From Armatimonadia bacterium (lineage in GTDB: Bacteria; Armatimonadota; Zipacnadia; Zipacnadales; UBA11051), in NCBI GenBank assembly GCA_039683575.1, contig JBDKRC010000190.1:1-25365 (forward strand): DNA of 25,365 nt. The letters run 5' to 3'. The position numbers were made by a program, and so were the translations under genes. Below the pieces are notes generated by a model. That model searched no databases, was not told where the DNA came from, and saw only the letters and a program-made list of their open reading frames with translations. Below, piece after piece: positions 2,912-17,768 of this stretch (its first letter is position 1; each line of letters starts with the position of its first letter).

Positions 2912-3036
2912 CTGACTCGCTCCTAAAATCTTCGATCTTATCTCGACATCGCGGGCCGTACCGGCCGCGCGTCGTCCACCACTAACCCCAAATAACACAC
3001 CGGCAGTTCGCACTGCCGGTGGCAGATGACTCTATC

Positions 3037-3447
3037 TTACGCCTTCTTGGTGCCGTACTTGGAACGCGACTGCTTGCGTCCCTGCACGCCCTCAGCATCG
3101 AGGGTTCCGCGAATGACATGGTACTTCACGGAGTTCAGGTCCTTCACGCGACCGCCGCGAACCAGCACAACCGAGTGCTCGGCCAGGTTATGGCCCTCGC
3201 CCGGAATGTAAGCGGTGACTTCCTGCCGGTTGAACAGGCGGACGCGAGCGCACTTGCGAAGAGCCGAGTTCGGCTTCTTGGGCGTCTGCGCCCAGACCCT
3301 GGTGCACACGCCACGCCGCTGGGGTGCCCCATCAACCGCACGACCACGCCGCTTGAGGGCATTCCATGCCACCTTCAAAGCGGGGGTACTCGGCTTCCGA
3401 GCTTTCTTACCGCGGCCTTTGCGCACCAGTTGACTGATTGTAGGCAC
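3037..3447 (-). CDS. rpsL: 30S ribosomal protein S12
   Basis: [47 protein letters not shown] start with AAGGAG RBS; ~13-aa Firmicutes/Terrabacteria-type N-terminal insertion. Confidence 0.97.
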
Positions 3448-3527
3448 TGACCGACACTCCTTAACAATTGCCTTATGGGAAGGGTCGCCTGACCCTCGCG
3501 GCCGTCTCGGCCGTCATACATGCAGGG

Positions 3528-3569
3528 AACAAAAACGGCCCCTTGCCACCCTACGGTGGTAAAGGGGCC
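3528..3569 (-). terminator. Intrinsic terminator/attenuator in the rpsL leader
   Basis: Minus strand GGCCCCTT-TACCACC-GTAG-GGTGGC-AAGGGGCC followed by GTTTTTGTT, about 80 nt before the rpsL start. Confidence 0.75.
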
Positions 3570-3795
3570 TCGGAAACTCAATCGGATTGAAGCGCCAGTT
3601 ACTACCTCCGATAACGGAGGGGTTCCTGCCTGCTTCATCACCCCTTGTACAGCTTGCTGCCTCGCGTGATGCGACGCGATAACAAAGCAGCCTGAGTTCC
3701 GCAGCCCCACTGCAACGATGAAAACAGCCGAGTAGTTCGCAAGCTGGTGAACCAGCGCCTCGCAGCGCCCTAACAGCCGCGCTTTCCCGGCAGAC
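3528..3795 (-). ncRNA. Putative structured cis-regulatory leader RNA (or sRNA) upstream of the str operon
   Basis: Lies between a consensus promoter and a terminator; several hand-identified nested helices; no convincing protein ORF. Confidence 0.5.
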
Positions 3796-3800
3796 ACCAA

Positions 3801-3829
3801 AGTATACTCAGGGGCGGTCAGTCTGTCAA
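3801..3829 (-). promoter_or_regulatory. sigma70-type promoter of the str operon
   Basis: Minus strand TTGACA-17 nt-TATACT. Confidence 0.85.
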
Positions 3830-3901
3830 CCCATCCGACAGGCTTTCCGCCCCCTTTACACCACTTTTTTCACATTTCCAGCCCCACTTCAGCCCCAGCC
3901 C

Positions 3902-6900
3902 CTACTCTTCCTCGTCGACCTCTTCGTCATCCTCCACGTCAGGGACCTCTTCCTCAAACCCCACCAAGTCCTCCAGGTCCAGCTCCGGAACCGCATCGCG
4001 GTTGCCGAACTCGCTGATCAGGCGCTGCACTGCCTCTTCGGGAGTCTCTTCCCGCTTGGACGGGACGAACTCGGGCACTGCGCCGTCGGCAAGGTGGATA
4101 TCCCTGTCGCGGTGGATCGGCATCCCGCTGCCGGCCGGGATCAGACGCCCGATGATGACGTTCTCCTTGAGGCCCAGCAGCGGATCGCGCTTGTGGCCGC
4201 AGGCGGCTTCCGTAAGCACGCGCGTCGTCCGCTGGAATGAGGCCGCCGACAGGAAGCTCTCGGTCGCCAGCGAGGCCTGCGTGATACCGAGCAGGATCGG
4301 TTCGGCTGTTGCCTCGCGGCCACCGAACTCCTTGACCCGCTGGTTCTCATCCTCGAAGTCAAACCGGTCCACGATCTCACCCGGCAGGAACCGCGTGTCG
4401 CCGTGGTCCTTGATCTTCCGCTTCTTGAGCATCTGACGGATGATGACTTCGATGTGCTTATCGTTGATGCTAACACCCTGGGCCTTGTACACCATCTGGA
4501 CCTCGCGCAGGACATAGTCCTGCAGCCCGTCGGTGCCCTTCATTTCCAGGATGCTCTGCGGGTCCACCGGGCCCATTGTGAGCCGGTCGCCGGCCCGCAC
4601 CTCGGTGCCTTCGCGCACGAACAGCTCGCCACGGTAGGGCACAAGGTGAGCGGTGCTGATGCTGACATGCGTCACGCCAGCCTTCTTCAGCCGCATCCGG
4701 ACCTTCTTCAGGAGCTTCTCGCCAGCCTTGGCCAGTCGCGTCTTGCCGTCGGCCGAGATGACGTCCTCTGCCAGACGCTCCCCACGGATTACCCGCAGGT
4801 CGTCGAGGCTGTGCTGCGAGTGGATGACCACGCTGCGCAGACCCTTGGTTTCGATGGCGGCCACGGTACCGTCGACTTCAGCGGTAATGGCCTGCCCCTT
4901 GGGCGTCCGCGCCTCGAACAGTTCGACAACGCGCAGGAGACCGTGTACGGGCGTCTCCAGCACCTTCAGCATCTCCTTGATGGCCTTGCGCCGGGCGCGC
5001 CCGCCACCAGCCATGTCCAGAGACACCATACCCTTGTCGATGTCTTCATGCAGCGACCGCAGGGCCTGCTGCTTGCGCTTCTTAACGTCGGCCACGCCAG
5101 TGATGTACTGACCAGCGACGCCACCTGTGTGGAACGTCCGCATCGTGAGCTGCGTGCCCGGTTCACCGATGGACTGTGCGGCAATGATGCCAACCGCAGT
5201 ACCCGTCTCCACCAGCTTCTGGCGTGCCAGGTCGCGGCCATAGCACTTCGCGCAAATCCCGCTGCGAAGCTCACATGTGAGCGGAGACCTGACCTTGACC
5301 TTCTTGACGCCGGCGGCCACGATCAGGCCCGCCAGGCGCTCGTCGATCTCTTCATTGGCCGAAACGATCACTTCGCCGGTCTCGGGATGGATGATGTTGT
5401 CCGCCGCGGTCCGCCCGATGATGCGGTCTTCGAGCTTCTCCAGCGTCTCCATCGCCTGCCCGATGGGCAGTTCGGCACCGCAGTACTCGCACTTGCCCTC
5501 GCGCAGCACGTCTTCCTGACCGCACACCTGGCAGTGCAGCTCGTGCGAATACATATTCGCCGTCCACACACCTTCTGAGGTGCCGCAGTCATGGTCACGG
5601 ATCATGACGTCCTGCGCCACGTCCACCAGACGCCTGGTCAGGTAACCGGCGTCTGCGGTACGCAGAGCCGTGTCTGCCAGACCCTTGCGCGCGCCGTGCG
5701 TTGCCACGAAGTATTCCAGTACGTTCAGGCCCTCGTGGAAGTTGCTCTTTACGGGCAAGTCCTCGATCAGTCGGCCGAACGGGTCGCTCATCAGACCGCG
5801 CATCCCCGAAATCTGCGAGATGTGCGAGCGGTTGGCGCGTGCCCCGGAGTTGGCCATCATCCAGATCGAGTTGAAAGTGCCGATGTTGTTCAGAATGTCA
5901 TCAGCGACTTCCTCGCGGGCGCCCTGCCACAGTTCCAGTACTCGCTGCTCGCGCTCGTCTTCGAGGATGTAGCCCTTCTTGGCCGCGTCGTTGATCCGGA
6001 CGACCTCGCGCTCGGTCCGCGCGATAGTCTCTTCGCGGCGGGTCGGCACGTCCGTATCATCGATGCAGATGCTCAGACCAGAACGCGTGGCGTACTTGAA
6101 GCCCTGCTCCTTCAGATCGTCGAGCAGGCGCGCCGTGCGCTCCTGGCCGTAGCTGTGGTAGCAGCGCCGCACGATGTTCCCAAGCTCTTCCTTGGCGATG
6201 TCGTGGTTCAGGAACGGCATGTCCAGCGGCAGGACGCGGTTGAAGATAACGCGCCCTGGAGTAGTCTCATACCGCAGTCGCGCGCTGCCGGTAACGATCT
6301 TGCCACCGACGGGGAAGTAGCCACCCCCGCAGGCTTCCTGCAGCCGCATCTCGAGTGCCTCGATGATCCCCTGCGTCTTGTCCGCGATGTCTATTCGCAG
6401 TTCGGGAATCTCCGAGAAGCGTTCCTTCCACTGGCCCCTGTACGGCTGTTCCTCGGCGTCCATCATCTCCTGGGTCAGTTCGAACTCGATCCGGCGGTCC
6501 TTGACGGGATGCTCCTGGCCTACAACCTCAGCCACGATCCGCCGCAGGTCCAACTCGAGTTGCTCATCCAGTTCCAGGGCGTCGCCATTCTCGTCGTATG
6601 CTTCGAGGAAGATCTGCCCCAAACGCACCGTCACCGTGGCGTGAAGGTCAACCTTGCGGTGCTGGTACGCCGTGATAACGGTCTCGGCGCTCGGGAAGAG
6701 CCGTCCCGCGCCCAGGCCAGTCTTGTTCTCCTGGGTCATGTAATACGAACCCAGTACGATGTCATACTTGGGAGCGCAGATGGGCGCACCGTCTGCCGGC
6801 TTGAACAGGTTGCGAGACGCGAGCATCAAAAGCCGCGCTTCTGCCTGCGCATGGGCCGACAGCGGGACGTGTACTGCCATCTGGTCGCCGTCAAAGTCAG

Positions 6901-8755
6901 CGTTGAAGGCTTCGCAAACCAGCGGATGAAGCTGAATCGCCTTGCCATCAATCAGCCGGGGCTCAAATGCCTGAATACCCAGCCTGTGCAGCGTCGGGGC
7001 GCGGTTCAGCATTACCGGATGGTCATCAATGACCTCTTCCAGGGCGTCCCAGACTTCGCTGCGCAGCCGGTCCACCATGCGCTTGGCGGTCTTGATATTG
7101 GTGGTATGCCCCTGCTCAACCAGCCGGTTCATGACGAACGGCTTGAAGAGTTCCAGGGCCATTTCGCGGGGAAGCCCGCACTGGTGCAGCTTCAGTTCAG
7201 GGCCGACCACGATAACCGAGCGGCCCGAGTAGTCCACGCGCTTACCCAGCAGGTTCTTGCGGAAGCGCCCTTCCTTACCCTTGAGCATGTCGGACAGCGA
7301 CTTCAGCGGGCGACGGTTTGACCCGGTCACGGGCCTGCTGCGCCGGCTGTTGTCGATGAGGGCGTCTACGGCCTCTTGCAGCAGACGCCGCTCGTGGTTG
7401 ATGATCGACTCCGGCGCATTGATCTCAATGATCCGCCGCAGCCGGTTGTTGCGATTGATAACGCGCCGGTACAGATCGTTGAGGTCTGACGTAGCGAAGC
7501 GACCACCGTCAAGCTGCACCATCGGGCGCAACTCCGGCGGCAGCACCGGCACAACCTCCATGATCATCCATTCCGGGCGGTTCTTGCTGTTGCGGAAGGC
7601 CTCCACAACCCGCAGCCGCTTGACTGCGCGCAGGCGCCGGGCGCCGGTCCGCTCGTCAATCTCCTGCCGCAGGTCGTGCGCCAGTTCGTCCAGATCGATC
7701 TCAGACAGCAGATCGCGGACGGCTTCCGCGCCCAGACCGGCCTTGAACAGGTCTGCGAAGCTACCATCCAGACGATCCTCACAGACCTCGACGAGGTCCA
7801 TGAGCCGCCGGTACTCCATCTCGGAGATCAGCGTCTTGGGGGTCAGCTTGAACAGAAGCTCCGCGGCCTCGCCCAGATCGTCCAGCCGATGGCTGACTTC
7901 GCCCTGGGTCTTGAGGATCCGACGGCTCAGCTCTTCCTCGGTAATGGTCTCCCACTTCGAGTCCGCCTCGCTCATCGGCGCCGGGTAACCATCCTCATCA
8001 AGCTCGGCAAAGTCCTCGAGCTCATCCTCACTCAGGCTAAGAGCGCCACCCTCGTCCTCATCCTCGCCAAGCTCGCCCTCGAGCTCGTCAGTCTCCTCGG
8101 CTTCCCCTTCCGGTTCCTCTTCGCCCGCCGCTTCAGCAGCAGCATCCTCGGCCGCCGCCTGTACCGCTGCGGCTTCCTCAGCCGCCGCTTCGCGCACCTG
8201 GGTCTGCCGCAGGCCCTCTTCGTACTCCTCGCGCAGCCGGTCCACTTCCTGGTCGCGCGAATCCAGAATCGCCTGCTTCTCTTCGTTGATGGCCGCCAGG
8301 ATGTCCGCCCGCCGCCGCTGCAGCTTCTCGACATTGACGCTCGTGACGATATAGGAAGCGAAATACACGACTTCCTCAAGCGTCCGCCGCGACATGTCCA
8401 AAAGCAGGCTCACGGGGCTCGGAACGCCCTTGAGGTACCAACTGTGGCATACGGGGGCTGCGAGCTCAATATGTCCCATACGCTCCCGCCGCACCTTCGA
8501 ACGCGTGACTTCCACGCCGCAGCGGTCGCACTTGATTCCCTTGAACTTGACCTTCTTGTACTTGCCGCAATGGCACTCCCAGTCACGGGTGGGCCCGAAG
8601 ATCCGCTCACAGAACAGCCCGTCCCGCTCCGGCTTGTACGTGCGGTAGTTGATCGTCTCTGGCTTCTTTACCTCACCATAGGACCAACTGCGGATCTCCC
8701 GCGGCGAGGCTAGTCCGATAGTAATGGCATCAAAATCGGTAGTCGAGTTAGCCAA
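3902..8755 (-). CDS. rpoC: DNA-directed RNA polymerase subunit beta'
   Basis: [14 protein letters not shown]-terminal Zn cysteines, NADFDGD catalytic motif, [28 protein letters not shown]. Likely TTG start at 8755 after a GGAGGGAG RBS (ORF extends to ATG 8803). Confidence 0.98.
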
Positions 8756-8851
8756 CTGCTCTCTCTCCCTCCGAGTAATCTTGGCGTTCCAGCCCCTATC
8801 CATCCACCAGCGCTGTCCCTGACCTCTGCTCTTCCGGCCCTGCCCCGTGGC

Positions 8852-11800
8852 TTACCGGCCCTCATCCCCATCCGTCCGCAGGTCAAGCGCCTTACCCTCA
8901 CGATTCTCAACCCGCACGTCCAGACCGAGGCTCTGCATCTCGCGCACCAGGATCTTGAACGACTCCGGCGTCCCCGGCTCGCGGATGTTGTCATCCTTGA
9001 CGATGGCCTCATAGGTCGCCACGCGGCCCTGTACATCGTCAGACTTGACGGTCAGCATCTCCTGCAAGCAGTAGGCTGCGCCGTAAGCCTCCAGCGCCCA
9101 CACTTCCATCTCACCAAACCGCTGTCCACCCATCTGCGCCTTGCCACCCAGCGGCTGCTGGGTAATCAGGGAGTATGGGCCCGTGGACCGGGCGTGGATC
9201 TTGTCCTCAACCAGATGGAGGAGTTTGAGGATGTACATGTAACCGACCATGACCGGCTGGTTGAACGGTTCGCCCGTGCGCCCGTCGTACAGCCAGGCCT
9301 TGCCGGTCTTGGAGTCGAACCCGACGCGCTTCTCGAAGTTGGCCACTGCCGCCTGCAGTACCAATTGCGCCGCCTGTGCGTCCTTGGCCTGAGCAAACTC
9401 CGCCTCGTCAATCCCCAGCCAGTCCGCGAGTTCGCCCATGGCTTCCTTGCCCGCCGCCTGCAGTTGCTTCAGAACGGCCTGCTGCTGCTCGGCGTAGGTA
9501 CCGCTCAGAACGCTCGGGTCTACGATCTCCCCGAACATGTTGAGCTCGGTCTGAGCATAGGCATGTAGCGCGCGGGTGTACAGCAACTCCGCCACCTCGA
9601 GCATGCCCTCCTTGATCTCAGCAATGGATACGCCCTGGAAAACCGGGGTGATGTACGTCCGCCCCAACTTCTTGGCGATCCAGCCCACGTGCGTCTCCAG
9701 GAGCTGTCCGATGTTCATACGGGACGGCACGCCCAGCGGGTTCAGGCAGATGTCAATCGGCGTTCCGTCCGACAGGTAGGGCATGTTCTCAGGCGGCAGC
9801 ACCTTCGAGATGACGCCCTTGTTGCCATGGCGCCCCGTCAGCTTGTCGCCTACCATGATCTTGCGCTTTTGCGCCACATAGACGCGCACGAGCTGGTTCA
9901 CGCCCGGCTTCAGTTCGTCGCCCGGCAGCTTTCGCAGCCGGCCGCCGCAGCGGTCGCATTCCAGTTGCCCATCCAGCGGCTTGCCAAAGTCATAGATCGA
10001 CTCGCACCGGTCGCAGCGGTACTTGTAGCGGGAGAAGACCTTCGTCGCGATGACGATGCCCTTCTCGCCGTGCGGCACCCGCAGCGACACGTCTCGCATC
10101 TCCTCGGCCTTCTTACCGAAGATTGCGATAACGAGTTTCTCTTCCGCCGTCAGCTCAGACTGGCCCTTGGGGGCCACTTTGCCGACCAGGATGTCCTCAG
10201 CGCGAACTTCCGCGCCGATCCGCACCACGCCGCCTACATCCAGATCCTTGAGGGCTTCGTCGCCCACATTCGGGATATCGCGGGTGATCTCTTCGGGCCC
10301 GAGTTTGGTGTCCCGCGCCTCACATTCCCACTTCTCGATATGCACTGAAGACAGCACGTCGTCGCGCATCAACCGTTCGTTGATGAGCACGGCGTCTTCA
10401 AAGTTGTAGCCTTCCCACGGCAGGAAGCAGACCAGGCAGCTTTTGCCCAGCGCCAGTTCGCCGTCTCTGGTCGCCGCGCCGTCGGACAGCGCCTGCCCCT
10501 TCACTACCTTCTGGCCGCGCCGTACCAGACGCTTCTGGCTGATGCACGTGCCCATGTTGGTGCGCAGGAAGTTCGCCAGCGGGTAATCCACTTCAAGGCC
10601 CGAAGCGTAGCGCATCTTGACGTGGTCGGCGTCGGCCTCGGTAACCTCGCCGTCCTCGTCGGCCAAGAGTACGGCACCGGAGTCCTCGGCTGACCGCCGC
10701 TCGACGCCCGTCTTCACTACCGGCTGCTCGGTGATAAGGAGCGGCACTGCCTGCCGCTGCATGTTGGAGCCTGCCAGAGCGCGCACCGCGTCGTCGTTCT
10801 CCAGGAACGGGACGAGGGCCGTCGCCACCGAGAAGACCTGCTTGGCCGACACGTCGCAGTAATCCACCTCATTGGGCGTAACCTGCGGGAACGTGCCGCC
10901 CTTGCGCACAATGATCCGGTCGCGAACGAAGCGGCCCTTCTCGACGGGCTCGGAAATCGTCGCCACGTTGAACAGCTCTTCTTCGTCCGCTGTCAGGTAC
11001 TCGATTTCGTCAGTGAGCTTGCCGCCCTTGACCTTGCGATACGGGGTCTCAATGAAGCCGTACTGATCAAGACGGGCGTGCAGCGCCAGATAACCGATCA
11101 GACCGACGTTCGGACCTTCAGGGGTCTCAATCGGGCAGATTCGGCCATAGTATGAATGGTGTACGTCGCGGACTTCCAGCTTCGCGCTCTGCTTGGACAG
11201 ACCGCCAGGGCCCAGGGCCGACAGGCGCCGCTTGTGCGCCAGTTCCGCCAGCGGGTTGATCTGGTCCATAAACTGCGAAAGCTGGCCGCTGCCGAAGAAG
11301 CTGTTGATCGCCGCCGTAATCGGCTTGATGCTGATGATGGACTGCGGCGCCATGTCATCGGGGTCAAGGCTCGTCATGCGCTCCTTGGCCACACGCTCCA
11401 TGCGCAGGAAGCCGGTGCGAAGCTGCGTCTGCAGGAGCTCGCCCACAGCTTTGACACGCTTGTTCATCAAATGGTCAATATCGTCCACAGCGCCTTCGCC
11501 CTTCGACAGGTTCAGGAGGTAGTGAACGATGGCCACGATGTCACGGCGGGTGAGGATATGAAGGTCGGGGTTGACGTCGATCCCGAGCTTCTTGTTGATC
11601 ATATAGCGGCCGACGCGCGACAGATCGTACTTCTTAATATCGAAGAAGTACGCGCGCAGCAGTGACTCGGCGCTGTCGAGGATGGGCGGGTCGCCGGGGC
11701 GGATCTTGCGGTACACGTCCAGCAGGCCCTCTTCGGCCGTGTGCGTGTTGTCGTCCGCCAGCGTCATCCGGAGCTGGTGCGGCACCATGATGACGTTGAT

Positions 11801-12670
11801 CTCCTTGCGCCCCATGCGCAGGATCTCTTTGGCCTCACGCTCGTCAATCACGCTCAGGTGATCCACGATCGTCTCGCCGTCCTCGTTCAGCACGCGGTCC
11901 AGCGAGAAGTACTCATCGTGGGTCTCAAGGCCCGGTGCCGTGTCCTCATCGCGCTTGGTCAGGCTCGAAATGAGATCCTTCAGGGGGATGCGCTTGCGCG
12001 TGCCGAAGCAGCGCAGGATCTCTTCATCGGTGCCGGTGGGAGGCGTGTTGGGGTCCTCGCCCTCGACCTCGAGGTAGTCAAGCGCTCGCAGGAGCGTGGT
12101 GACCGGGAACTTGCGCGCCTGGCCGATCTTCACGCCAATTACGCCGCTGGCCGCGGTGTCAACTTCCACCCAGGCCCCGTCATTCGGGATAACCTGGGCC
12201 GAGTACAACACGCGCCCCGAGGAATCGATGGCATCACGGAAATATACCGAAGGAGAGCGGGAGAGCTGGCTGATGACGACACGCTCGGCGCCGTTCACAA
12301 GGAACGTGCCGCGCGTGGTCATCTGGGGCAACTCGCCCATGTAGACTTCGAACTCTTTGATCTCGCCGGTCTCTTTGTTGACCAGCCGGACCTTGGCATA
12401 CAGTGGCGCCTCGAACGTAGCGTCACGCTCGCGGCACTCCGGGATGCTCCGCTTGGCCTCGCCAATGCGGTAGTCCAGGAACTCCAGGGAGATGTTGCCG
12501 GTGTAGTCCTCAATTGGCGAGAAGTTGTCAAACAGCTCGCGCAATCCATGCTCAATGAACCACTCATACGAGGCTGTCTGAATCTCGATTAGATAAGGGA
12601 GTTCAATGATATCCGGGGTCTTACGCCGCGATTCGTACACGACGTTAGGCATCGCTTGTGAAGTTGCCAT
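8852..12670 (-). CDS. rpoB: DNA-directed RNA polymerase subunit beta
   Basis: [58 protein letters not shown]. Likely ATG start 12670 after GAGGAGG (ORF extends to 12730). Confidence 0.98.
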
Positions 12671-12761
12671 GTTCAGCGCAGTGCCTCCTCTAGTGGTGGT
12701 GCTTAACTGCAGTAGTAACCCCTCCGCCATGCGGGTACAGCGAGGACCGCTCTCCAGACAA

Positions 12762-12896: not shown

Positions 12897-13223
12897 CCGC
12901 TAATTGGCGACCTACCGGCTCGCCCTGCCTGCTCGTAGCCAATGACCGCTCCAGGGCTGTCATGGTATGACATCGCTACATTACAGGCTCGACGCCGGCT
13001 CTCACCTGGGCGTAGCGTCACGGGGTGGTACATATAGCCAACAATCTCTCCACCCCTTCTGCCTCCCCGCGGCCGTGATTTCCCGCAATAACACGCGTCT
13101 GGGATGGCGGTGACTGCCCCGTCGGGACGTCTTCTCGGACCATGTTGCCCCCTCCGCCCCGCAGCCACTCTCAGGTTTGCAGCAAGACGCCATACTCAGC
13201 GGCGCAGCGGCGCCCGTAGGGGA

Positions 13224-13253
13224 TTGACGCCCCCGCCTCCGGCGGACTATACT
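13224..13253 (+). promoter_or_regulatory. sigma70-type promoter for the beta-barrel gene
   Basis: TTGACG-18 nt-TATACT about 45 nt upstream of the start codon. Confidence 0.6.
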
Positions 13254-13299
13254 GCCGCCGTCAGGCCTTCTCGGCCGACCCATCAGGGAGGTGACCAGG

Positions 13300-14013
13300 G
13301 TGCGTTGTTCTTTGCTCGTAGCTGCTGTATGTCTATTGCTCGTCGTCTCCGCCGCCTGTGCCCAGAGTTATGTCAGTGTATGGGAAGCCGGTGAGGCCAC
13401 ACAGACCTCGACTTCCTCGTGGTTTGGCAACGTCGGGATGATTGTAACACCGACAGCCGCCGTTCCAGCCCCCTCGGCGGCCACCGCACAGTGGCACCGC
13501 GTAGACCGCGATGCCGGCACTGTGGACGTCATTGGCGTGAACTTCGGCGTAACTAACTGGCTTGAGATCGGCGGCGCGCGCGTCGACGACGAAGCCGCTG
13601 AGGATGCCGAGGAGATCGCGAACGTCAAGGTCCTCCTCCCTGTCGCCAAGTGGTTTGATGAAGCCAACTGGCCCACAGTAGCCATTGGGGCTGTGGACGT
13701 CACCAACGAGCTGAACCGGTCTTTCTACCTGGTACTCAGCAAGGATCTCTCGGCGGGGACGCCTGCTCAGATCGCCAGGCAACTCAAGGTTCATCTGGGC
13801 GTCGCCGACAGCGATTCTGAGACTGGTGCGCTTGACGGCGTATTTGGCGGCATCGAGTTCGCAGCCTTCCGCGACGGCGTGGTCCAGGCTGAGTACGATG
13901 GGGACGCTTTCAACGCCGCCTTGCGCTACACCCCAATGGGCCGCATTTCGCTCGATATCGGCACCCTGGACAGCGACTTCGGGTTCGGTCTGACCTACCG
14001 CTCCAACTTCTAG
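13300..14013 (+). CDS. Exported outer-membrane beta-barrel protein, YjbH-like
   Basis: Signal peptide (MRCSLLVAAVCLLLVVSAACA-Q), G-x-IVTPTA motif near the N-terminus, amphipathic beta strands, C-terminal FGFGLTYRSNF (terminal Phe, BAM-type signal). GTG 13300 follows GGGAGGTG (ORF from 13291). Confidence 0.65.
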   Translation: MRCSLLVAAVCLLLVVSAACAQSYVSVWEAGEATQTSTSSWFGNVGMIVTPTAAVPAPSAATAQWHRVDRDAGTVDVIGVNFGVTNWLEIGGARVDDEAAEDAEEIANVKVLLPVAKWFDEANWPTVAIGAVDVTNELNRSFYLVLSKDLSAGTPAQIARQLKVHLGVADSDSETGALDGVFGGIEFAAFRDGVVQAEYDGDAFNAALRYTPMGRISLDIGTLDSDFGFGLTYRSNF

Positions 14014-14044
14014 GGGCGTTGACGTACGTCTAGCTGTAACCATC

Positions 14045-14074
14045 AGCCGCCCCGGCACCTGCCGGGGCGGCTTT
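14045..14074 (+). terminator. Hairpin terminator after the beta-barrel gene
   Basis: AGCCGCCCCGGCA-CC-TGCCGGGGCGGCT-TT perfect inverted repeat with short T run. Confidence 0.6.
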
Positions 14075-14152
14075 ACTGCGCGGGGGAGGTATCACCCCGC
14101 TCGTGGGCGAAGTAGCCCGCCAGCGGCCTACAACGATTGGAGACTTTGCACC

Positions 14153-15013
14153 TTGGACACCAGTACTTTTGCGACTTTCCCCCAGGGCGAATTCCTGCCG
14201 GGTACTCAGATTGAGGTTCGCACCCCTGACCTGCAGCGAGGGCGCCTGAAGTTCTGTCTGTTCGACTTCGACGGCACCATCTCGCTGATCCGGGAGGGCT
14301 GGCAGGAAGTCATGATCCCGATGATGGTGGACTTGCTTGAGGAGACATGCTCCGGCGAGACCCGCGAGCAGTACGAGGCGATCGTTTCCGAGTTCGTCAC
14401 GCGCCTCACCGGCAAGCAGACCATCTACCAGATGATCGAATTCGCCGAGAACATCGAAAAGCGCGGAAAGACCCCGCAGGACCCACTGGTATACAAGCAG
14501 ATGTACCTGGACCTGCTATGGGAGCGCATAGAGCACCGTGTAGCCGGGCTGCAAAGCGGGAGTGCCGACCCGGAGGACTGGATGGTTCCGGGTGCGCGGC
14601 GGATGCTGCAGCGGCTGGCGGACGCAGGTATCACGATGTATCTGGCCAGTGGCACCGATCACCGCTTCGTGGTCTCTGAGGCCCAGGCGCTGAAGGTTGA
14701 CCACTTCTTTGGCAAGTACATCTACGGCGCTCTGGACAACTACAAAGAGAGCTCCAAGAAGATCATCATCGAGCGCATCATTGCCGAGAACAACCTCCAT
14801 GGGCCGGAATTCTGTGGTTTTGGAGACGGCTTCGTGGAGATAGAGGACAGCAAGGACGCCGGCGGGCTGGCTGTGGGCGTGGCGACCGATGAGGAGACGC
14901 GCGTTGGCGTCAACGAGTGGAAGCGCAACCGCCTCATTCAGGCTGGCGCGGACATCATCGTGGCCGACTTTGGCGAGTGTGACAAGTTGCTTGACTATCT
15001 GGGCGTGTCTTAG
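14153..15013 (+). CDS. HAD-superfamily hydrolase/phosphatase
   Basis: Motif I FDFDGT, motif II LASGT, Lys motif, motif IV GDGFVE; GGAG RBS before TTG. Confidence 0.85.
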   Translation: MDTSTFATFPQGEFLPGTQIEVRTPDLQRGRLKFCLFDFDGTISLIREGWQEVMIPMMVDLLEETCSGETREQYEAIVSEFVTRLTGKQTIYQMIEFAENIEKRGKTPQDPLVYKQMYLDLLWERIEHRVAGLQSGSADPEDWMVPGARRMLQRLADAGITMYLASGTDHRFVVSEAQALKVDHFFGKYIYGALDNYKESSKKIIIERIIAENNLHGPEFCGFGDGFVEIEDSKDAGGLAVGVATDEETRVGVNEWKRNRLIQAGADIIVADFGECDKLLDYLGVS

Positions 15014-15067
15014 GGTGCGGAAGCCGGGCGAGACCCCTGGCATACCTACTCCGGGAGGGATCTACTG

Positions 15068-15931
15068 ATGAAGGCACCCTCGGTAGCCGCCACTGCGCGG
15101 ACCAGGTGCATGTTGTGTGGTAGTACAGAGTTCTCTGATCTCGTCGTGCCAGGCCAGTGCACGATGCGCTGCTGCCAGGGCTGCGGATTCTGGGTAAACT
15201 CCGGATACGAGCCCGACGAGGGCTGGTCTGCTCACTACGGCACGGAATACCAGGACAGCCTCTATGGTCGCGCCTCACGTCGCAAGCTACGCTCGGCGCG
15301 ATTCGCCGTGCGACAGATAGAGGGGCTGCGCTCCCCGGGGCGGCTGCTCGACATCGGTTCCTCCCTTGGCTACGTGGTCGCCGCCGCCCAGGAGCGGGGT
15401 TGGGACGCATACGGGGTGGATATCAGCGAGGATGCGGTGGTACGGTGCCAGGCCGAGGGGCTCAATTGCGCGCAGGGCGATATGCAGCACCTGCCCTACC
15501 CCGACGGTTTCTTCGATGTGGTGCATGCCAGGCATGTACTCGAACATGATCTGGAAGTATACGCCAGCCTCGAGGAGATGCGGCGTGTACTGGCCGAGGA
15601 TGGCCTGCTCGTGGTCGAGGTCCCGGACGCCGAGACCAGGAAGGTGAAGCGCGGCGGGGCCGGCTATGCCAAGTTCTGGTGGCCGGAGCACCATGTCTGT
15701 TTCACGGCAAAGACGCTGGCGGAGTTCATGAGGCGGGCAGGCTTCGCGTCGGTGCGATGGTCCGCAATGGCAGGACTGAATCGCGGCGGGGGCGGCACGC
15801 CCACGTTTCTGGTGTGGAAACTGGCGCACCTACTGAAGATGAGGCTGGGCCTGGCAACATATACCCAGGGCGTCTGGAGAAAGACCGGCGAGGCGAACTG
15901 GACGGGCGAGCCCAATGAGGCGACGGCCTAG
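15068..15931 (+). CDS. Class I SAM-dependent methyltransferase with N-terminal CxxC/CxxC zinc ribbon
   Basis: CMLC...CQGC; LLDIGSSLG motif I; GVDIS; FDVVHARHVLEH; GLLVVEVP. Confidence 0.85.
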   Translation: MKAPSVAATARTRCMLCGSTEFSDLVVPGQCTMRCCQGCGFWVNSGYEPDEGWSAHYGTEYQDSLYGRASRRKLRSARFAVRQIEGLRSPGRLLDIGSSLGYVVAAAQERGWDAYGVDISEDAVVRCQAEGLNCAQGDMQHLPYPDGFFDVVHARHVLEHDLEVYASLEEMRRVLAEDGLLVVEVPDAETRKVKRGGAGYAKFWWPEHHVCFTAKTLAEFMRRAGFASVRWSAMAGLNRGGGGTPTFLVWKLAHLLKMRLGLATYTQGVWRKTGEANWTGEPNEATA

Positions 15932-16081: not shown

Positions 16082-17131
16082 CTATCCCCGAGTGCCGTCA
16101 CCCACTGCAACCCGGCGCGGGTGGCCTTCGAGTAGCTGAACCGCCGCTTTGAGCATCTGCTCCATCGTGACTTCCTCAAGACATGGCCGGCCGTCCCCCC
16201 GCTTACATGGGTCAGAAGGCCGGCAGGGGCGAAACTCGCAGGCCGACCAGATGCCGATGGCTTTGTCACTGGTGGGGGCGCTACGGGTGGTGCTTGGCCC
16301 CATGGCGCACACTACCGGAGTGCCCAGGGCAAAGGCGTAGTGTGGCAGGCCAGAATCGTTTCCAACCGCGAGGTCGCAACGCGCCAGCAGGGCAGCAGCC
16401 TGGCCCAGGCTGGTCTTTCCCGCAATGATCACCGGAGCATGCTTCATGCCGGCGGCCAGGGCCTCGGCTCGCGGCACCTCGGGAGGACTACCGAAGATCA
16501 GGCACGTCGCACCTTTCTCCTCAGCCAGCCGGTCCCCGATCTGGCCGAAGCGCTCCGTCGGCCACTCTCGCGTGGGCTCTGCCGAGAACGGCAGCAACGC
16601 AACCACCGGATGCTTTCCCTCAAGCCCCAGTTCCTCCCACGCCTTTGCGGCAGCCGCCTGGTCTTCCGGGGACGGAAATAGCTCCGGTACGTAGTCGTCT
16701 ATGTTAAGGCCCAGATCCGAGCATTGCTCGAGGTAGTGCTGGGAGATGTACACATGGTCGCGGCGAGTGGGCATCCGGCGGGTGTAGAACATCTTGGCGC
16801 CCTCACGGGCGTCGTCGCGGCCGATGCGGATCGGGCTGGCCGACAGGGCGGTCACGAGACCGCTCTTGAGCAGGCACTGCAGATCGATGGTGATGTCGAA
16901 CTTGCCGCGAATCCTCGGCGCCAGAGCGCGCCAGGAGCTGAGCTTGCGGGGCTCGAGCACGAACACCTCATCAAGGTGAGGGTTATGCTTGATACCCGGC
17001 AAGGCCTTGGGTTCCACTACCCAGGCGAGATGGCAGTCAGGATAGAGCTGCTTGATCTGCCGGGCGACGGGCGTGCTCTGGATAGTGTCCCCGATGGCGG
17101 AGAGGCGGACTATGAGGATGCGTTTGGGCAT
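16082..17131 (-). CDS. Glycosyltransferase family 9 (LPS heptosyltransferase-like)
   Basis: MPKRILIVRLSAIGD, FDITIDLQ, REWP, GKTSL, VGNDSGLPH motifs typical of WaaC/WaaF-like GT9. Confidence 0.9.
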   Translation of the reverse strand: MPKRILIVRLSAIGDTIQSTPVARQIKQLYPDCHLAWVVEPKALPGIKHNPHLDEVFVLEPRKLSSWRALAPRIRGKFDITIDLQCLLKSGLVTALSASPIRIGRDDAREGAKMFYTRRMPTRRDHVYISQHYLEQCSDLGLNIDDYVPELFPSPEDQAAAAKAWEELGLEGKHPVVALLPFSAEPTREWPTERFGQIGDRLAEEKGATCLIFGSPPEVPRAEALAAGMKHAPVIIAGKTSLGQAAALLARCDLAVGNDSGLPHYAFALGTPVVCAMGPSTTRSAPTSDKAIGIWSACEFRPCRPSDPCKRGDGRPCLEEVTMEQMLKAAVQLLEGHPRRVAVGDGTRG

Positions 17132-17195
17132 GGGGTTTTCCACAGATAGAGCGTTCCTGCGAGGGCCACGGGCGAGCCGCCCGCGCCAGGGGTAC

Positions 17196-17666
17196 TTACG
17201 ACTTGGACTCGATACGCTGGAGCATGCTCGTGGTGGAGTGGCCTTCGAGCAGCGGCACAATCACGACTTCGCCCCCCAGTTCGCGCACGACGGGTGTCTC
17301 GGGCATCTTCTCGGGGTCATAGTCCCCGCCTTTGACCTGGATCTTCGGGCGCACGGCCTTGATCGTCTCGATGGGCGTGCTTTCGTCGAAGATGATGACA
17401 AAGTCAACGCAAGCCAGGGCCGTCAGTACGGCGGCGCGCTCCTCCTGGGGCACGAGCGGACGCTGGGGGCCTTTCAGGCCGCGGACTGAGGAGTCGGAGT
17501 TGAGGCCAACAACCAGCACGTCGCCAAGGCTGCGAGAGCGGTTGAGCAGCGAGAGGTGGCCCAAGTGCAAGAGGTCGAAGCAACCATTGGTGAAGACGAT
17601 GCGGGAAGTGTCGGAAAGGGTGTTGCGCAGGGCGCGGAAGGCTTCTCTGTCAACGACGAGACCCAT
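17196..17666 (-). CDS. rfaE2: D-glycero-beta-D-manno-heptose 1-phosphate adenylyltransferase (stand-alone RfaE/HldE domain II)
   Basis: VFTNGCFDLLHLGH, VVGLNSDSSVRGLKGPQRP, VKGGDY, GHSTT; GGAGG RBS before ATG 17666. Confidence 0.92.
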   Translation of the reverse strand: MGLVVDREAFRALRNTLSDTSRIVFTNGCFDLLHLGHLSLLNRSRSLGDVLVVGLNSDSSVRGLKGPQRPLVPQEERAAVLTALACVDFVIIFDESTPIETIKAVRPKIQVKGGDYDPEKMPETPVVRELGGEVVIVPLLEGHSTTSMLQRIESKS

Positions 17667-17739
17667 GTAATAACCTCCAATGGGGCGGGGCGAAGGCGCC
17701 GGGTAGGTAGTGCGACTGGTGTGAACGACGCCGCGGCTC

Positions 17740-17768
17740 AAGGTACACTAACGTCCGTGAATCGTCAA
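17740..17768 (-). promoter_or_regulatory. Possible sigma70 promoter for rfaE2-GT9
   Basis: Minus strand TTGACG-17 nt-TACCTT. Confidence 0.5.

Follow-up and report, generated by a model that had tools for sequence, protein, structure and literature searches.

A structured leader RNA ahead of rpsL in Armatimonadota, probably a transcription attenuator of the str operon

The region between rpoC and rpsL in an Armatimonadia bacterium (Armatimonadota; Zipacnadia; Zipacnadales; UBA11051) contains a structured leader RNA of approximately 265 nt, which runs from a promoter to an intrinsic terminator and comprises five or six helices. It was analysed within a 25,365-nt stretch of DNA, contig JBDKRC010000190.1 of assembly GCA_039683575.1, here called the window; the leader and the genes of its operon lie on the minus strand. 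Judged from its conserved sequence and pairing, the leader probably attenuates transcription of the str operon (rpsL-rpsG-fusA and onwards) in cis, from a position at its head. Within the known, multiform kind of rpsL leaders it constitutes a new RNA family. Recurrence of its promoter, its motifs and its terminator ahead of rpsL in 58 genomes shows the arrangement to be more than chance. Conserved complementarity and its lineage-specific extensions give the proposed terminator/antiterminator logic good support, short of proof; that the leader switches, and what triggers it, we infer.

Distribution and conserved structure

A BLAST search with the rpoC-rpsL gap against 60 relatives yielded a single match, from the same genus, and a protein-anchored search and a covariance model were therefore used. 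DNA around rpsL was taken from 30 relatives by the protein-anchored search. The rpoC-rpsL gap spans 371–1004 nt in those relatives that have rpoC within reach. The motifs AAGCGC, GCGAACUG, GGGGYUG and AAGGGGGC occur in the relatives at fixed distances after the promoter, followed by a CCCCUC...GAGGGG hairpin with a U-rich tail, and the distance from the -10 box to the terminator is 210–318 nt. A covariance model built from 29 of these leaders (R1; alignment A1) gave exactly one match in the window's own genome. Across the class, 58 of 79 genomes gave a match, one each, and all 58 belong to the window's order: the window's own genome and 57 of the 66 others of that order, with none among the 12 genomes from elsewhere in the class. 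Every copy inspected stands upstream of rpsL, on the same strand.

Beyond the reach of R1, inspection covered five genomes of other orders and, within the order, four genomes of genera g23 and g25 that the model had missed. Upstream of rpsL, each of the latter four carries the promoter and the CCCCUC...GAGGGG terminator, with a linker reading AAGGAGGC (g23) or GGGGGU (g25). Among the genomes of other orders, four of five have a C-run/G-run terminator just before rpsL and a G-rich linker upstream of it, and one has the promoter only. A second covariance model, of the 3' module alone (R2), was weak: it missed the window's own genome and was not specific, and only three of its 18 loci in other classes of the phylum lie upstream of rpsL. 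These three are found in all three sampled genomes of family f37, which belongs to another class, and they carry the TTGACA-17-TATACT promoter, AAGGGGGC and a CCCCUC...GAGGGG-U8 terminator. Together, the f37 and other-order versions indicate that the core design is older than the window's order. At present, the family is known from that order, with traces in further orders of the class, and from family f37.

The promoter in the window matches the consensus at 11 of 12 positions. A promoter scan identified its -35 hexamer, TTGACA (3824–3829), and its -10 hexamer, TATACT (3801–3806), which are separated by a 17-nt spacer and place the probable transcription start near 3794. It is the sole promoter-like site between 3000 and 4300, where shuffled sequences lead one to expect 0.3. 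An earlier note, made from the window's sequence alone, had described a near-perfect TTGACA-17-TATACT promoter at 3829–3801, and there it is; the stems, linker and terminator listed in that note likewise all agree with the window sequence. A promoter occupies the matching place in 51 of the 58 genomes. Its -35 box reads TTGACA in 41 of them and TTGACT in 10, its -10 box TATACT in 28, TATAAT in 20 and another sequence in 3, and the spacer is 17 nt in 47 and 18 nt in 4. The model match was mis-registered in the remaining seven genomes, two of which show the promoter in the printed flank. A TTGACA-N16-18-TATAMT promoter was also found in the upstream regions of 29 of the 30 relatives, the thirtieth being interrupted by a contig end. 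An A-rich tract, GTGAAAAAAGTGG (3861–3880), lies about 35–45 nt upstream of the -35 box, and most relatives have similar A-runs there; the tract looks like the UP element of a strong promoter.

Folding of the 353-nt leader is more stable than that of all 100 shuffles (z = -3.36). At the 5' end, helix P1 is formed by GCCGGG (3786–3791) and CUCGGC (3732–3727). The segment that follows (3774–3785) reads AAAG-CGCGGCUG (family motif AAGCGC), comprises an internal-loop strand and the 5' strand of helix P2, and has conserved columns in alignments A1 and A2. Its counterpart (3733–3746), CAGCUUGCG-AACUA (family motif GCGAACUG), supplies the 3' strand of P2 and a conserved loop. The base of P2 pairs 3781–3774 with 3746–3738, and P1 and P2 flank a conserved internal loop in which AAG stands opposite AACU. 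P2 is capped by local hairpins (3747–3773) that differ in length and sequence among relatives. At the 3' end, the intrinsic terminator consists of the hairpin GGCCCCUUUACCACC-GUAG-GGUGGCAAGGGGCC (3537–3569; family form CCCCUC...GAGGGG) and the U-tract GUUUUUGUU (3528–3536). The duplex of its arms has a predicted energy of -27.5 kcal/mol. The window terminator is absent from a simple terminator scan because its stem has an internal loop, a feature that the scan excludes. The spacer from the terminator to the GUG start codon of rpsL (3448–3527) is not conserved and contains the Shine-Dalgarno sequence AAGGAG (3462–3457).

Covariation supports P1, P2 and the terminator. The alignment used, A2, has 59 rows, comprising the 58 genomes and one spurious row of 50 nt. 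Across the three helices, 92.4% of its cells are paired, compared with 77.9% in shuffles; changes on both sides occur in 13 of 17 modelled pairs, and none of 500 shuffles reaches any of five measures. Sliding the partner by one to three columns lowers pairing to 42–54%. Both-side changes affect five of five modelled pairs in P1, where duplexes of own strands have an energy of -10.2 kcal/mol and crossed duplexes one of -5.1 kcal/mol; P2 shows GC, AU and GU exchanges, with corresponding values of -10.5 and -5.4 kcal/mol. In the terminator helix, 93.6% of cells are paired and six of nine pairs show double changes. Its stem is followed by 5–11 U within 12 nt in 57 members.

The middle of the leader is less uniform. 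It begins with the conserved motif G1, GGGGCUG (3702–3708; family form GGGGYUG), a possible decoy for the C-run of the terminator. A closing helix of CGGAACUCA (3693–3701) and UGAGUUUCCG (3580–3571) then encloses hairpin A (3656–3692; GGCUGC...UCGCGU-CGCAUC-ACGCGA...GCAGC), the conserved linker LK (3641–3650), which reads GUACAAGGGG in the window and AAGGGGGC in the family and is the proposed antiterminator strand, and hairpin B (3589–3637; UGAAGC...CCUCCG-UUAU-CGGAGG...GCUUCA). A hairpin stands at the position of A in most families, and GAAGC/GCUUC and the CCUC..GAGG apex of B recur across several. RNAalifold gave inconsistent structures for the middle domain on MAFFT alignments of family subsets, and hairpins A and B diverge too far between families, so no consensus is given for them beyond presence. 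Other long-range pairings, of the segment after P1 with that before the terminator and of the G1 flanks with the linker flanks, gave no own-versus-cross signal.

The leader is also modular. Genus g12 has no P1/P2 5' domain and its leader is about 55 nt shorter (loci L161–L169). Genus g25 (L171) keeps P1 and P2, which are followed directly by the linker and hairpin B, without G1 (GGGGYUG) and hairpin A. A constant core is formed by the linker, hairpin B and the terminator.

Possible competition for the terminator C-run

All fixed-offset pairings around six anchor motifs were scanned, and only two candidates emerged besides P1, P2 and the terminator: GGGGYU with RRCCCC, and AGGGG with CCCCU. The first, which involves G1, can form in 76–100% of 51 sequences, and the second, which involves the linker core, in 82–100% of 57. 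In several lineages the complementarity extends further, with bases upstream of AAGGGG matching the interior of that lineage's own terminator. Examples are CACGAGGGGC/GCCCCUCGUG, GCACCAAGGGGC/GCCCCUCUGGUGC and, in the terminator loop, CAUCAGU/ACUGAUG. Where the linker is weakened to GGAG, in genomes of g12, CGCGAAAGG is complementary to CCUUUCGCG, and in g23, AAGGAGG matches CCUCCU through a register shift. With the GGGG:CCCC core left aside, the linker extension pairs with its own terminator at -7.45 kcal/mol and with others at -6.06 kcal/mol, a preference reached in 9 of 5000 permutations (27 representatives). A control segment upstream of G1 showed no own-pair preference (3887 of 5000).

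Leaders of family f6 (e.g. L135, L148 and L157) contain a near-copy of the terminator 5' arm, GAGACUCUUC, about 15 nt before the terminator and upstream of the real arm, GGCCCCUC. This near-copy confused the model's alignment, and in family f6 it may represent one more competitor.

Predicted folds place the two states close together in energy. Nascent transcripts, folded up to the emergence of the terminator 3' arm, pair the C-run with the linker in 19 members, with G1 in 18 and elsewhere in 14, and leave it without a partner in 6 (n = 57). In the window the partner is G1, and the closing helix is extended by GGGGCU/GGCCCC. When the C-run is forced to pair upstream rather than downstream, the median difference is 2.8 kcal/mol (range -5.5 to +10.2). 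The window itself gives -117.2 kcal/mol for the terminated and -114.7 kcal/mol for the sequestered fold.

Expression of the operon appears to require passage through the terminator. Between the terminator and the rpsL start, 57 members have an unconserved spacer of 44–194 nt (median 76), and no promoter-like site with at least 9 of 12 matches is present in any of these spacers, the best reaching 8 of 12 or lower. There being no second promoter, the operon therefore depends on read-through. Thirteen RNA-library runs contain part of the stretch, and four runs from one wastewater study were compared. One contig from these libraries (3854–3272) spans the promoter, the leader and the terminator and continues into rpsL; others cover 3788–3477, 3781–3640 and 3633–3440. 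The leader and its junction with rpsL are thus present in RNA libraries. Contig ends at 3788 and 3781 (two runs) fall near the predicted start, and 3869–3970 is uncovered in the four runs, though neither is counted as evidence.

These features can be combined in one mechanism. A strong sigma-70-type promoter would start the leader, which would end at the CCCCUC...GAGGGG hairpin and its U-tract, and RNA polymerase would reach rpsL only when this terminator fails to form. Failure would follow if the terminator C-run were captured instead by an upstream G-run, either AAGGGGGC between hairpins A and B or GGGGYUG before hairpin A, giving an antiterminated fold with a predicted stability near that of the terminated one. 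A factor that binds the upstream modules (the P1/P2 loop AAG/AACU, the G-runs and hairpin B) could tip the balance and set the output of S12, S7 and EF-G. Feedback by the operon's own S7 or S12 is the favoured candidate for the trigger, at somewhat less than even odds overall. It is the most economical guess, one reason being that the rpsL-rpsG spacer has no conserved operator in the order.

Several observations weigh against this account. The earlier note had proposed the linker as a mutually exclusive antiterminator. Its AAGGGG is indeed highly conserved and complementary to the terminator 5' arm in nearly all members, but the antiterminator core shows no covariation (76.3% paired, 76.6% in shuffles); covariation is uninformative here, because both sides are nearly invariant. 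G1 is moreover an equally good partner, so that there are two candidate antiterminator strands between which the folds do not choose. The signal of the linker extension is modest, and a control segment downstream of the linker leans the same way (226 of 5000 permutations, 25 representatives). The multi-stem domain with its closing helix, also described in the note, pairs as drawn in the window, but the helix is kept, with compatible variation, only in four genomes of genera g1 and g2 (e.g. CAGGACG/CGUCCUG in one). As a feature of the whole family it was rejected, since own and crossed duplexes are alike (-6.9 and -7.3 kcal/mol, 51 sequences); of the helices that the note describes, the terminator covaries and the closing helix gives no signal. 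The loss of modules in g12 and g25 suggests that the 'sensor' is not one fixed fold. Mimicry of 16S rRNA was likewise rejected, as only short words (such as ACAAGCG and GAACUG) are shared with the 16S of four relatives, in unrelated places and at about the rate of chance. Finally, the RNA evidence consists of assembled contigs from one study, which show no ends or levels and may contain DNA.

Competing explanations

The best-placed alternative, although an unlikely one, is a small-molecule riboswitch, in which the conserved junction would bind a translation-linked metabolite, such as (p)ppGpp or a guanine nucleotide, and thereby choose between terminator and antiterminator. In its favour are highly conserved unpaired nucleotides between variable helices, a terminator as expression platform and two predicted states that are nearly isoenergetic. 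The regulated genes encode GTPases and ribosomal proteins, targets of the stringent response. However, a new riboswitch class is usually reused before several genes of a pathway, whereas this leader is present in a single copy per genome, always at rpsL. No known class matches, the gene context suggests no ligand, and the dispensability of whole modules in some lineages (g12 and g25) is unusual for a compact aptamer.

Slightly less probable again is a leader that senses global translation capacity as a bistable element, in place of a classic operator for a single protein. Two G-rich decoys, one of them AAGGGGG (or AAGGAGG), would then compete with the terminator 3' arm for one C-run, and transcription of the str operon would be decided by (p)ppGpp, or by free 30S subunits settling on the Shine-Dalgarno-like decoy. 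If true, this would represent a new riboswitch class or a ribosome-sensing mechanism of attenuation, ancestral to much of Armatimonadota.

There is also a small chance that the leader is a constitutive structured 5' untranslated region with a leaky terminator and no signal-dependent switch, its hairpins stabilising or processing the mRNA. The terminator would then hold leader and operon transcripts in a constant ratio, or shield the str operon from rpoBC read-through. In favour of this reading, no terminator lies between the rpoC stop codon and the leader promoter in the window, many members have imperfect U-tracts (24 of 57 have 5–6 U in the 12 nt after the stem), and the alternative pairing is, as described above, without evidence of covariation. 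Against this, conservation of the three G-runs and of the C-run extends to their sequence, beyond mere pairing, and complementarity to the terminator has been relocated in lineages with an altered linker (GGAGG in g23, GGAG in part of g12). Unless something competes for the terminator arm, these two observations are difficult to account for.

Just as improbable is that the element serves mainly as an independent small RNA of about 265 nt with a function in trans, perhaps as a protein sponge, read-through into rpsL being secondary. A promoter at or near consensus and a strong terminator do form a complete-looking transcription unit, the terminator is present in the full-length minimum-energy fold of 44 of 57 members, and other bacteria are known to have terminated leaders with trans activity. 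Yet the element always stands directly upstream of rpsL in the same orientation, the 44–194 nt before rpsL hold no promoter, so that rpsL needs read-through, and an RNA-library contig bridges the terminator into rpsL. Nor is the element 6S RNA: the leader had no match to that model, and 21 of 21 genomes carry their 6S RNA at another place. The window genome's own 6S RNA lies on another contig (G000 contig C254:1058-1254) and scores 66 bits, above the Rfam cut-off.

Coding explanations were rejected, as the open reading frame at 3375–3800 (141 aa), which overlaps the leader, has no Pfam match and shows a non-coding pattern of indels in relatives, and as no conserved start codon for a leader peptide behind the Shine-Dalgarno-like AAGGGG was seen on reading the alignments.

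Related leaders, gene context and significance

Attenuation at the head of the str operon remains the preferred reading, and comparison with described RNAs indicates where the leader belongs. No Rfam model matched the window at gathering thresholds. Between 3300 and 4000 there were only chance-level matches, with E above 1 and to unrelated snoRNA models, and the leaders of 20 relatives gave nothing at E up to 0.1. The earlier note, which had recognised no known family here, is borne out by this search, and a known Rfam family or riboswitch class was rejected for the window and the 20 relatives alike. Literature on riboswitches, structured RNA and ribosomal leaders in Armatimonadetes or Armatimonadota yielded no description of this leader RNA among the matches listed. 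Curated Rfam families presumably include the rpsL leaders of Pseudomonas and Rickettsia.

The resemblance to known rpsL leader attenuators is one of kind. As in those, the element is transcribed directly upstream of rpsL on the same strand, as a 5' leader of rpsL-rpsG-fusA-tuf, and it has an intrinsic terminator before the start codon, a possible antiterminator and S7 as a suspected effector. It differs in its length of about 265 nt, its five or six helices, its two G-run decoys and its lack of an Rfam match. Naville and Gautheret count rpsL with the genes that most frequently have an attenuator before them and call the rpsL leader 'multiform', with no common sequence or structure, leaving the ligand open and suspecting S7 (PMC2965389). 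Since rpsL leaders share no sequence or structure on that account, the Armatimonadota leader can be regarded as a separate family of the same functional kind. A structured RNA described in 2009 ahead of rpsL in the str operon (PMC2704228, as cited in PMC2965389) has the same position but, as far as the available text of the same source goes, lacks a canonical terminator (PMC2965389). The Armatimonadota leader, in contrast, has a clear terminator, and one copy per genome. The earlier note had envisaged an undescribed attenuator controlling rpsL-rpsG-fusA. Single-copy conservation throughout the order, the lack of an intervening promoter and the covariation of P1, P2 and the terminator argue for the attenuator. 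Its novelty holds with regard to Rfam, but attenuators of many unrelated shapes upstream of rpsL are already in print (PMC2965389).

Autogenous control in other bacteria provides further points of comparison. The L10 and L20 ribosomal-protein leaders of Bacillota act by transcription attenuation. They are likewise structured leaders in which a choice between terminator and antiterminator gives autogenous control by a protein encoded downstream, but they involve other genes, folds and a different phylum, and the search of the Armatimonadota leader for 16S rRNA mimicry established no resemblance to a binding site. None of the 20 new ribosomal leaders reported by Eckert and Weinberg is for S12 or S7, in the part of the report that was available (PMC7247131). 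The S7 operator of Escherichia coli lies between rpsL and rpsG and, in the available text of Fu et al. 2013, is not conserved in other phyla (PMC3616713). It regulates the same operon, presumably also through feedback by one of the operon's own ribosomal proteins; unlike the terminator-bearing leader upstream of rpsL, it is situated in the rpsL-rpsG spacer and, from what that text gives, works by translational coupling. The leader was rejected as an E. coli-type S7 operator on account of its position. In 30 relatives the rpsL-rpsG spacer measures 20–256 nt and is unconserved even within the genus; an E. coli-type S7 operator in that spacer is therefore not general in the order.

In the window, the start of the longest open reading frame of rpsG (GTG at 3013, 190 aa) is an overcall, and the S7-like protein, MPRKGE..., starts at the ATG at 2911–2909, behind a Shine-Dalgarno sequence. 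With the corrected start, the rpsL-rpsG spacer is 125 nt long and contains a 9-bp hairpin formed by CACCGGCAG (3021–3013) and CUGCCGGUG (3006–2998). The loop and 3' strand of this hairpin read GCGAACUGCCGG, the same word as the leader motif GCGAACUG. As a second operator, the hairpin with GCGAACUGCCGG was rejected, since it is not conserved even within the genus.

The minus-strand gene order in the window is rpoB (8852–12730), rpoC (3902–8803), a gap of 454 nt (3901–3448), rpsL, rpsG and fusA (332–2410, with EF-G domains). The first gene downstream of the leader, rpsL, encodes S12 (3037–3447; Pfam Ribosom_S12_S23, 1.5e-36) and starts with GUG at 3447. As the longest open reading frame, rpoC encodes 1633 aa and ends in a strongly acidic C-terminal tail (3902–4060, minus strand). 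Upstream of rpoB (13005–15829) are five minus-strand open reading frames without a Pfam match, and rplJ-rplL does not obviously precede rpoB among the minus-strand frames considered. Farther upstream are a family-9 glycosyltransferase gene (16085–17260) and a cytidylyltransferase-like gene (17199–17741).

How much S12, S7, EF-G and EF-Tu a cell makes depends on the str operon, whose control outside Gammaproteobacteria is little understood; no ligand is known for the many 'rpsL leaders'. With about 60 aligned members, clear helices and a clean terminator, in a phylum with almost no molecular biology, the Armatimonadota leader is a good substrate for finding such a trigger. The RNA family is missing from Rfam, and its addition would improve the annotation of Armatimonadota genomes.

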